From the NCBI RefSeq assembly GCF_037042905.1, contig NC_087251.1:40612001-40676000 (forward strand): a stretch of DNA of 64,000 nucleotides, given 5' to 3'. Made by a program: the position numbers and the translations under genes. Below are positions 33,492 through 37,040 of this stretch, one piece after another. The stretch's first letter is position 1. Each line of letters starts with the position of its first letter. The DNA is from Lytechinus pictus. Taxonomy: Eukaryota. Below the pieces are notes generated by a model, which was not told the origin of the DNA, did not search any database, and worked only from the letters and a program-made list of their open reading frames with translations.

Positions 33492-34499
33492 TACACTGTT
33501 TGGCGGTCGACGATTAAAGGGATAGAGCCTCGTCGATCTGGCGCCGCACAGCGCCTGTCGGGCCCTCGATCAATTGGGCAAAGCAAATTTTCGGAGTTTT
33601 TCATTCATGTATGTTTCAAACAATAAAATATGGATTTTCATGGATTTTTCTTGAAGTATTGTAATGCGCAGTTGAGTATATACATATAGAAATTGCGCAA
33701 TATAGATGTTCAATTATTATCATTAATATTATGAGTGTCCGACAAAGAGGTTACCATTCTATTCTACTATCGTGAATGAAATACAGATCTACTTTTATTT
33801 TTATTTTATTTATTTATTTATTCATTTATTTATTTATTTATTTATTCATTCATTCATTTATTTATTTATTCATGTTAAGAATGGGTCGTTGTAATGTAGA
33901 GTAAATGTGGAGTTATATAGGTATCCATTGTAACAAAGTCATAAATGCGTGTAGCTGAAGGCATCAAATCTCACATCTCATTTCTTACTTATAATGGGAT
34001 AAAGGCAAGTGACATCAAGATTCTTGTCCCCGTCTTTGAGATCGATAAACAATTTCCTTTTACCGCTTCTACCGCCCAAAGGGCGACTAGTTTTGCACCT
34101 GGTATTCTCTCACCGTCTGAATAAAAACCCTCACTAAAGTAAGCTGATTAAATAATGATACTCTCACCAGGTGATAGTCATAATAACGTCTGAGATTTGT
34201 TGGGCTGTTTCATATTTTGAAAAATGAAGAGAAAGGGTATTTTTCCCACTATGATACATAAAGACGTTTAAAATATACCAACGGGAACAGAAAGCAACAA
34301 TTACTAGTCCTCCTATACATGTACTACTTTTTAAATATGTTCACGTACAATTTTTGTGTATGTCGACTTGGCGAGATATCGTTTCTCACCATGCTGACAT
34401 ACAACTTTTCATATGTCAACTTGCGAGATAACGTATCTCGCCACTATGTCGACTTGGTGAGATAAATTATCTCGTTCTATTCCATTTTCTTATTATATA

Positions 34500-34500
34500 A

Positions 34501-34553
<53 letters not shown>

Positions 34554-34586
34554 GTAGTAGTAGTAGTAGTAGTACTACTACTACTT

Positions 34587-34643
<57 letters not shown>

Positions 34644-34658
34644 GTACTACTACTACTT

Positions 34659-34725
<67 letters not shown>

Positions 34726-34760
34726 TACTACTACTACTACTACTACTGCTACAACTACCA
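34500..34760. repeat. (CTA)n microsatellite
   Basis: Directly visible. Confidence 0.95.
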
Positions 34761-35683
34761 TGTATGTTTTGCTTTGATATTATGAATCATAAGTGTATAT
34801 GAGTGTAATATTTTAACTTGCTTTTCAGTCGACCGATGAAGAATCAATCCGAAACAGCCAAGGCGCAATATCAGTTTCTAATTTCGATTTACTTTCGAAG
34901 TGACATAGCGTGATCAGTTATGTTTGTTTCGGCGCTCTTTTATTTGCTCATAAGAATAGAGGATTTCAAGACACTGTTTTCTCTTATCTGCTCGAAACTT
35001 TGGAAGCGTACGTTTACAAAATAATTAAGATATTAGGTTTCACGGGCCTAATTACAACTGGCAGGCAAAAGATATTAATTCGAGCCAACCCATTCTCAAT
35101 ATTTAAATTTGATATTGCTGATTGACAAAAATGAATGAATATGACTGACAATCTAACACTGATTCTATAGGGAGGGTACCTACTGAAGTTCCTTTTTCCA
35201 AATTTGAAAGATATATCACCACTTTGGAACTATTTTTTTTTACTAGCGGAAGAATTAGGGCCATTTTACTCTCTCAGGTGATGAATTTGTGTTGTTGTTG
35301 TTGTTTTTATTTTGGGTTTTAAGGCGCGTATCATGCAGATATGAATATTTACGATGAATTTGATCTTGCCAGGAGTAGTCTTCATAAATGCCGATTTATT
35401 TTTAAAATGAGCCTGTCGAGGTACCCTATTATGATCAGATATGGAATCGCTGATGTGGTTTACGGTACACCATGTGAAGTGTTGTAGAAACAGTGGATAG
35501 GAGAAGAGAAGAAATTGATAGGCGAGAAAGTGGAGATTTGAGAGTAGAGTATTCTTTCTTGAAAGTAGTCCTGAAAAGGACTGTAAACCAAGAAAGATTG
35601 ATGAGTTGAGAACAGCTTGAGTAGTAGAGCTAGTGAGGAGATACTGGCTTGAGTCGGCGAGTAGAGATGATGAGTAGTAGAGA

Positions 35684-35726
35684 GACTCGACGTTTCGGGC
35701 AGGTTGACTGTCCGTCTTCAGGAGAC
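35684..35726 (-). ncRNA. Minimal hammerhead ribozyme motif (inverted copy)
   Basis: Reverse complement of 35769-35811. Confidence 0.65.
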
Positions 35727-35768
35727 TGTCTTCGGGCAGGTTGACTGTCCGTCTTCAGGAGACTGTCC

Positions 35769-35811
35769 GTCTCCTGAAGACGGACAGTCAACCTGCCCGA
35801 AACGTCGAGTC
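35769..35811 (+). ncRNA. Minimal type-I hammerhead ribozyme motif
   Basis: CTC-CTGAAGA-c-GGACAG tcaac CTGCCC-GAAAC-GTC-GAG: CUGANGA box, stem II, GAAA box, GUC site, short stem I. Confidence 0.65.
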
Positions 35812-36196
35812 TCTCTACTACTCATCATCTCTACTCGCCGACTCTACTCTCAAATCTCCACTTTCTCGCCTATCAATTTCTTCTCTTCTCCTATCCACTG
35901 TTTCTACAACACTTCACATGGTGTACCGTAAACCACATCAGCGATTGTACATACCACCATGCAAACCTTCAAACAACATCAGATATGGAATGTCAGACAT
36001 ATATCCTATCCACTGGTAGTAAACATTCAACCATCGAATTTCCTCCTTATTTTTTATGAATTTTTTTAAGTGCCACTTTAACACACGAGTCTATTATTTA
36101 GGCCTGTGATACCATTATCTCTGTGGCTCGAAATAGCGAGAGCGCCATCTGCCATGTAGTTTTAGAGAATTAGACTCGAATGCTGATTTTTGTTTT

Positions 36197-36604: not shown

Positions 36605-37040
<436 letters not shown>

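Follow-up and report, generated by a model that had tools for sequence, protein, structure and literature searches.

Two head-to-head Penelope-like pLTRs with hammerhead motifs in Lytechinus pictus: a likely double-primed integration product and passive by-product

Results

Organization of the insertion

The window, a stretch of 64,000 nucleotides of Lytechinus pictus DNA, contains a 530-bp insert placed between two 14-bp direct repeats, at the positions given in a preliminary description of this DNA. The insert is composed of two arms of the same pLTR, joined through a short filler. Arm positions are numbered p1-p311 after one full natural arm, that of locus L008. The features are as follows.

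35034..36115, no strand: unrelated high-copy host repeat (~550 bp), interrupted by the element; its paralogs supply the empty site
35434..35447, plus: left copy of the target-site duplication (TSD), a 14-bp maximal match ATCAGATATGGAAT; its last AAT matches the element too
35445..35724, minus: left arm, complete tail-less pLTR p1-p280; the short RT start site (S) lies at its left junction
35553..35582, minus: histone-mRNA-like 3' signal, stem-loop AGTCC-TTTTCA-GGACT (35582-35567) followed by CAAGAAAGA (35561-35553); Rfam Histone3 E=1.1, below threshold
35686..35724, minus: minimal type-I hammerhead motif, CTGAAGA from 35721, GTC ending at 35689; predicted cut between 35689 and 35688
35725..35770, plus: central filler made of templated pieces of the left arm's end; no ribozyme; a CT overlap joins it to the right arm
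35771..35980, plus: right arm, pLTR p1-p74 joined to p179-p314, with a 104-bp deletion at an ACTC microhomology
35771..35809, plus: minimal type-I hammerhead motif, CTGAAGA 35774-35780, GAAA 35799-35802, GTC 35804-35806; predicted cut after 35806
35947..35980, plus: tail p281-p314, in the right arm only, with RT start site T at its end
35978..35991, plus: right TSD copy ATCAGATATGGAAT; its first ATC matches the element too

The arms had been described as near-perfect reverse complements. This is true of the paired segments, which are 100% complementary over 106 and 76 bp, but not of the whole arms, since the right one lacks 104 bp of the left one and has an extra tail of 31-34 bp. The tail contains the first in-frame ATG of the ORF at 35959 (p293), as seen in another copy (L039); the window copy itself has no ORF. 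The insert shows three differences from a reference arm, in agreement with the young age proposed for it. Its centre contains an exact 37-bp direct repeat (35694-35730 = 35731-35767), in which a third, broken hammerhead had been placed (35731-35763). This candidate was discarded: the repeat is a templated junction repeat holding only pLTR bases 1-31, its GAAG was made by the junction and it never had GAAA-CGUC. A similar centre, in which one piece is duplicated and the 39-nt motif is present three times in full, is found in another insertion (L036, G000:C1:38997403-38997529).

The flanking repeat had been taken for a 14-bp TSD. A duplication is indeed supported by empty paralogous sites, but since the ATC and AAT at its edges also match the element's own ends, only 8-14 bp need be TSD; the family value is 12, and the 14 of the window correspond to 12 plus overlap. 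Both flanks of the locus belong to the high-copy repeat, for which the genome search gave 1912 candidates, and the empty sites are paralogous copies of it. The target is present once in all 10 paralogs displayed, and the left and right flanks are directly joined in 12 of the 14 paralogs fetched. Elsewhere this unclassified repeat forms short tandem arrays (L168, L170). No clear long ORF was found in the 20-50 kb searched for host gene context. Around the locus, (TAC)n at 34496-34758 and (GTA)n at 36605-37000 are inverted and 2 kb apart, and are probably independent microsatellites; a possible short single-copy exon after TTTTCAG (34829-34903) is ~92% conserved in contigs of organism A.

Family identity and coding relatives

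A genome search with the arm scored 40 of 1116 candidates and gave 66 matches; those of full length are mostly 98-99% identical. At L014/L031, a 776-aa frame with a reverse transcriptase domain (Pfam RVT_1, E=1.4e-11) and a GIY-YIG match just under the Pfam cut-off (E=1.8e-4) ends ~220 bp before the same pLTR. This is the linkage of genomic copies to a coding element that had been proposed as a check of Penelope-like origin. The ORF of L046, linked to the same pLTR, encodes RT and, at its C terminus, GIY-YIG, with a DKG motif (DKGNA) and a CCHH-type endonuclease (EN) signature (CxC between GIY and YIG) as CDCGKVYIGETG...H...H. The long frame of L046 has no start and that of L039 no EN motif. 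The tail continues into the ORF at 5 places, and L153 is a partial pLTR-ORF tandem. Related ORFs (54-64% identity; L176, L177, L178) also precede families B and C. On domain order and motifs, we assign the family to the EN+ Penelope-like elements (PLEs) of Penelope/Poseidon type. Since the insert matches the pLTR, has ORF-linked siblings, is flanked by a foreign repeat and has empty paralogs, it is a young, non-coding insertion of this type within another repeat. In families A, B and C, a ACATGGTGTACCGT-like motif (35462-35475 of the window, minus strand) lies ~15-25 nt before the short RT start site and is a candidate protein-binding site.

Hammerhead motifs

The plus-strand motif and the identical minus-strand motif are where they had been located, and both contain the core CUGANGA...GAAA...NUH with a palindromic ACGU helix III. 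Stem I has 3 bp in the insert (CUC/GAG) instead of the native 4 (ACUC/GAGU), because both arms stop at pLTR base 1; stem II carries an A-C mismatch in the young subfamily of the insert. The genome contains 131 occurrences of the 39-nt motif and 0 of the reversed control; a degenerate core pattern has 591 matches against 16 for its control. Covariation in stems I and II, suggested earlier as a check, was assessed on 12 distinct sequences hand-picked from 6 families. Compensatory changes on both sides were found in 7 of 9 stem pairs, with a covariation score of 0.483 versus 0.203 after shuffling and at most 0.14 for slid controls of the same 12 sequences. The Rfam search that had also been advised gave no hammerhead match in the insert at E<=10, and the hammerhead is recognized here by its core and covariation. 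Only hairpin-driven, sub-threshold miRNA matches were returned, and a miRNA was rejected. By these sequence features, we regard the two motifs as genuine minimal type-I hammerheads covarying across families. The motif is under structural selection at the family level, which is silent on its function at the window locus.

Arm pairing and integration

To describe how such palindromes are built, we pooled the best arm matches, the first 100 of the 131 places with the motif, 30 of the 35 at the cut site and 6 variant copies, and dropped duplicate loci. Among the resulting 128 loci, 65 are two-ended inverted insertions. Arm 3' ends cluster at two sites, about p274-283 (short) and p310-318 (tail), and 63 of the 65 insertions pair a short arm with a tailed one; one is short+short, one is uncertain and none is tail+tail. 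A TSD is present in 42 of 59 insertions with exact anchors, and 41 of these 42 fit a 12-bp stagger; an exact TSD of at least 8 bp is absent from the other 17. The two arms diverge by 0.7% within a locus versus 2.8% between loci (50 loci), and at several loci both share variants found nowhere else (L011, L042, L053, L078, L101, L122). Arm 5' ends fall at p-2..p+2 in 63 of 98 cases, in a TCACTC context, with only the upstream edge unbiased since the arms were sampled by p1. Apart from these, at the 5' junction of the apparent solo pLTRs L003, L055 and L065 there are 4-7 nt left over from the tail end (CAACATC or CATC), as if second priming had halted at once.

We consider, with a probability of about 0.85, that the insert represents two head-to-head PLE pLTRs, likely the double-primed product of one event and likely a passive, non-coding by-product and not a switch. 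The element's protein would cut both DNA strands ~12 bp apart and both cut ends would prime reverse transcription, with the top-strand 3'-OH starting at the short site (p278-281) and its bottom-strand counterpart at the tail end (p310-315). One template lineage would have given rise to both cDNAs, which would run off at the RNA 5' end at p-2..p+2, likely the transcription start (TCACTC, Inr-like). At the window locus, the left cDNA would slip back on its template twice and then join the other cDNA via a 2-nt overlap. Since both hammerhead halves are kept, this copy was templated by uncut RNA. The near-strict short+tail pairing together with the fixed 12-bp stagger points to a probable protein dimer that would cut both strands and prime each at its own site.

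Twin priming is the likely route judging from the junctions. In a distinctly less probable scenario, the long cDNA reaches the RNA 5' end, snaps back, copies itself into the second arm and anneals to the short cDNA of the other cut. Self-priming was proposed for such palindromes (PMC3846280), central fillers are templated, and both arms tend to the same start class (hand tally 24/1/3/7, Fisher p=1.3e-4). The private variants common to both arms speak for it too and, with the matching arm 5' ends, also fit fold-back of a long cDNA onto a short second primer, or arm conversion. On the other hand, the arms of L017, L048 and L061 carry different element sequence, and both strands are extended on RNA in vitro (PMC11167929). 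Since the longer arm may be either one, and the tailed arm of L017 holds sequence missing from its partner, simple fold-back from the tailed arm cannot cover all cases. For short palindromes like the window insert, junction signatures alone cannot separate fold-back from twin priming.

Arm 5' ends at the predicted cut

The predicted ribozyme cut is at p36/p37, p37 being the first base after GUC. A base other than C precedes p37 at 35 places, of which 30 were read: 10 are point mutants and the rest breaks, with ~13 independent insertions, 1 templated repeat and 1 ambiguous case. A scan of family A across p28-p50 gave 73 rows, and removal of 25 with indels, older variants or ambiguous ends left 48 clean breaks. 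Fifteen of these (14 loci) are at p37, none at p36-p34 and at most 8 at any other position, in a count made by eye (p=1e-9 by a binomial test with a uniform, and thus crude, null). In family B, 29 of 62 clean breaks among the first 100 of 205 rows are at the cut, with 0 at -1 and -2 and at most 8 elsewhere (p=1.5e-21 against the same crude null), after exclusion of 12 rows sharing one amplified junction at the cut and 26 intact or ambiguous rows. The amplified piece, which starts at the cut, has been multiplied with its flank inside another repeat (for example L191 and L192). Fifteen family-B loci were then chosen for resembling cut-site ends. Solo arms border host DNA right at the cut, where the TSD adjoins them: the TSD is exact in L123, L183 and L190 (12 bp) and imperfect in L184, L186, L187 and L188. 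Both arms stop precisely at the cut in L129 and L181, where 1-2 bases of filler are present.

This peak is best read as ribozyme cleavage with later retrotransposition of the 3' product, and likely records in vivo hammerhead cleavage of element RNA; the siblings that start at p37, a minority, were likely copied from cut RNA. RT stalling or a host nuclease acting at the same bond could also generate such ends, and microhomology may inflate the palindromic cases. It is rather improbable that the whole peak is a DNA artefact, in which end-joining or central deletion lands on GAG(T) without any RNA cleavage, even though GAG(T) after the cut is the main purine-rich word of a pyrimidine-rich arm and pairs with the 5' strand of stem I. 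Indeed, about half of the family-A cases overlap the partner arm by GAG(T) (L122, L124, L137, L140, L141), L134 may be of the stem-I-junction type, this junction is seen in RNA reads from organism B (joints 1209-1250 and 1213-1246, sharing 4 letters), and a smaller peak at p46 (8) is accounted for by an AGTACT palindrome. Against this, none of the 35 family-A places shows the direct stem-I junction (which the family-B tally left out by design), the solo arms above touch host DNA and TSD at the cut, both arms of L129 and L181 reach exactly to the cut, and ~20 family-B rows enter non-element DNA at the cut versus at most 5 at any other position (by eye). We hold it to be probable that the minimal hammerheads of PLEs cut the element's RNA in the germ line and that cut RNA is retrotransposed; on this view, the proposed protein dimer may also unite two RNAs and so complete the ribozyme, and a histone-type 3' signal in the pLTR may supply the other RNA end.

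A histone-like 3' signal in the pLTR

The left arm carries a putative histone-type 3' signal, missing from the right arm through the 104-bp deletion. Families A, B and C retain a hairpin with a UUUUCA loop followed by CAAGAAAGA, with compensatory changes (L102-L110); the best Rfam Histone3 score across pLTR families is E=0.003, below threshold. The canonical form, stem-loop plus CAAGAAAGA, has 908 genomic occurrences, mostly in arrays on one contig (putative histone genes). Tandem pieces in L147 (p37-159) and L181 (31 nt) extend from the hammerhead cut to just past the hairpin; each is joined to another cut-site start, and template jumping between doubly processed RNAs would give this appearance, a suggestive observation only. 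Among 72 rows, arm 3' ends showed no genomic peak at the signal. The loop UUUUCAG is complementary to the hammerhead CUGAAGA. TTTTCAG as a splice acceptor was rejected: an intron of 25 nt would result from the family-B spacing, no recurrent GT-AG joint ends there, and two low-depth contig skips from 1242 (X15) end away from it.

Two identical 455-aa ORFs for ISXO2/IS1595-like transposases (PF12762, E=7e-23; L175:83-1450, plus, and L174:1586-2953, minus; G000:C3 ~5.966-5.971 Mb) each end ~50 bp short of a perfect histone 3' stem-loop and its CAAGAAAGA. DNA transposons of this genome may also use histone-type 3' ends, and several other dispersed, paired signals may resemble this case.

RNA folding and transcripts

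Self-cleavage had been proposed to compete with a long hairpin as a built-in silencing or endo-siRNA switch. This idea is not supported by the analysis and we now find it very unlikely. The whole insert does fold as a long hairpin (-410 kcal/mol on the plus and -396 kcal/mol on the minus strand), and rotifer Penelope copies yield antisense small RNAs (PMC3846280). In organism B, RNA reads (mostly 90-99% alike) cover the pLTR on both strands and almost nothing of the ORF, and 68-74% of them run into unlike flanks; for pLTR RNA of relatives as a whole, the share is 68-78%. Yet no competition is predicted: at equilibrium, the hammerhead stems have a pairing probability of 0.00, both in the whole insert and in nascent transcripts that end 38-60 nt past C3, and even in isolated arms stem II forms at 0.74-0.99 and stem I does not. 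The antisense arm is transcribed first from either direction, and these models suggest that it buries the ribozyme in read-through RNA. Moreover, stem I is shortened, and the two motifs, being on opposite strands, cannot make a tandem dimer in one RNA. Since the palindrome is a routine integration product of the family (65 two-ended cases among 128 loci), no regulatory role is required to explain it. Entry of hairpin RNA into small-RNA pathways may be a by-product.

The pLTR RNA of organism B is passive read-through of scattered copies, and nothing ties it to the window locus; in 6% of one run, the unique left flank of the window was uncovered, which is uninformative on this locus. Read starts and ends formed no pile-up on the pLTR in these fragment libraries, which are ill-suited to show one.

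Discussion

The window locus is an ordinary one, and the informative part of this study is the family statistics. In two families, 5' ends peak sharply at the cut, and this provides a read-out of cleavage applicable to any other genome rich in PLEs. In L1 twin priming, the second cut strand primes a second cDNA, which creates an inversion inside the TSD, and the two cDNAs cover different parts of the RNA. The cDNAs proposed for the window insert, by contrast, would begin at two fixed sites and share nearly their full extent.

PMC8557442 terms the function of hammerheads in endonuclease-bearing PLEs still unclear, and PMC4209133 states that in vivo evidence of cleavage by minimal hammerheads is lacking. 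In the literature searched, which omits most subscription papers, we found no report of genomic PLE 5' ends at the hammerhead cut, nor of a histone stem-loop in Penelope. The peak also indicates that the sense strand serves as template, whereas an antisense template had been proposed (PMC3846280).

An inverted pLTR with a tail on one arm is a published layout (PMC3846280, PMC8557442). Indeed, Pen2/Pen2a of Adineta vaga (PMC3846280; scheme in PMC8557442) likewise have a pLTR with an inverted 5' copy, a 31-34-bp tail at one end, a TSD, an ATG in the tail region, an Inr-like TCACT, palindromic junctions and a single ORF with RT, DKG and, at the C terminus, GIY-YIG. They differ in that the window copy has no ORF and its family has the histone-like 3' signal in the pLTR. 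The TSD is nearly fixed at 12 bp in the window family, versus 8-10 bp in the rotifer (PMC3846280) and a variable length according to PMC8557442, and the present count puts the short/tail pairing at 63 of 65.

The Poseidon protein of Anolis carolinensis (PAc) cuts and extends both strands in vitro, from two start sites that bracket the tail and mainly on uncut RNA (PMC11167929). The window family shares with PAc the two RT start sites, the proposed cutting and extension of both strands, AT-rich targets, the hammerhead at the pLTR and uncut RNA as main template. However, PAc uses its two sites without strand preference in vitro, whereas the window family pairs short with tail. Since equal use of both sites on both strands would be expected to give short+short and tail+tail insertions, a coupling step is missing from the published model. 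Furthermore, PMC11167929 found no RNA-seq reads ending at the cut, where the genomic 5' ends of the window family peak, and the ORF begins within stem II in PAc and within the tail in the window family. The family statistics set exact predictions, a 12-bp stagger and strand-specific start sites, for this existing in vitro system.

Minimal hammerheads of metazoan PLEs (PMC4209133) have the same core, an extra base before stem II, a long stem II, a short stem I and a loopless palindromic helix III. Pairs on opposite strands are 100-700 bp apart in that work and ~50 bp apart in the window insert. Non-LTR retrozymes (bioRxiv 10.64898/2026.07.22.740005) are likewise non-coding, carry a type-I hammerhead and are kin to PLE pLTRs. 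They are head-to-tail tandems with canonical dimer-forming units, whereas the window insert is a head-to-head pLTR pair of a coding family; its central repeat is without the 3' half of the core and it has no head-to-tail tandem, and a retrozyme was rejected in favour of a Penelope/Poseidon-type insertion.
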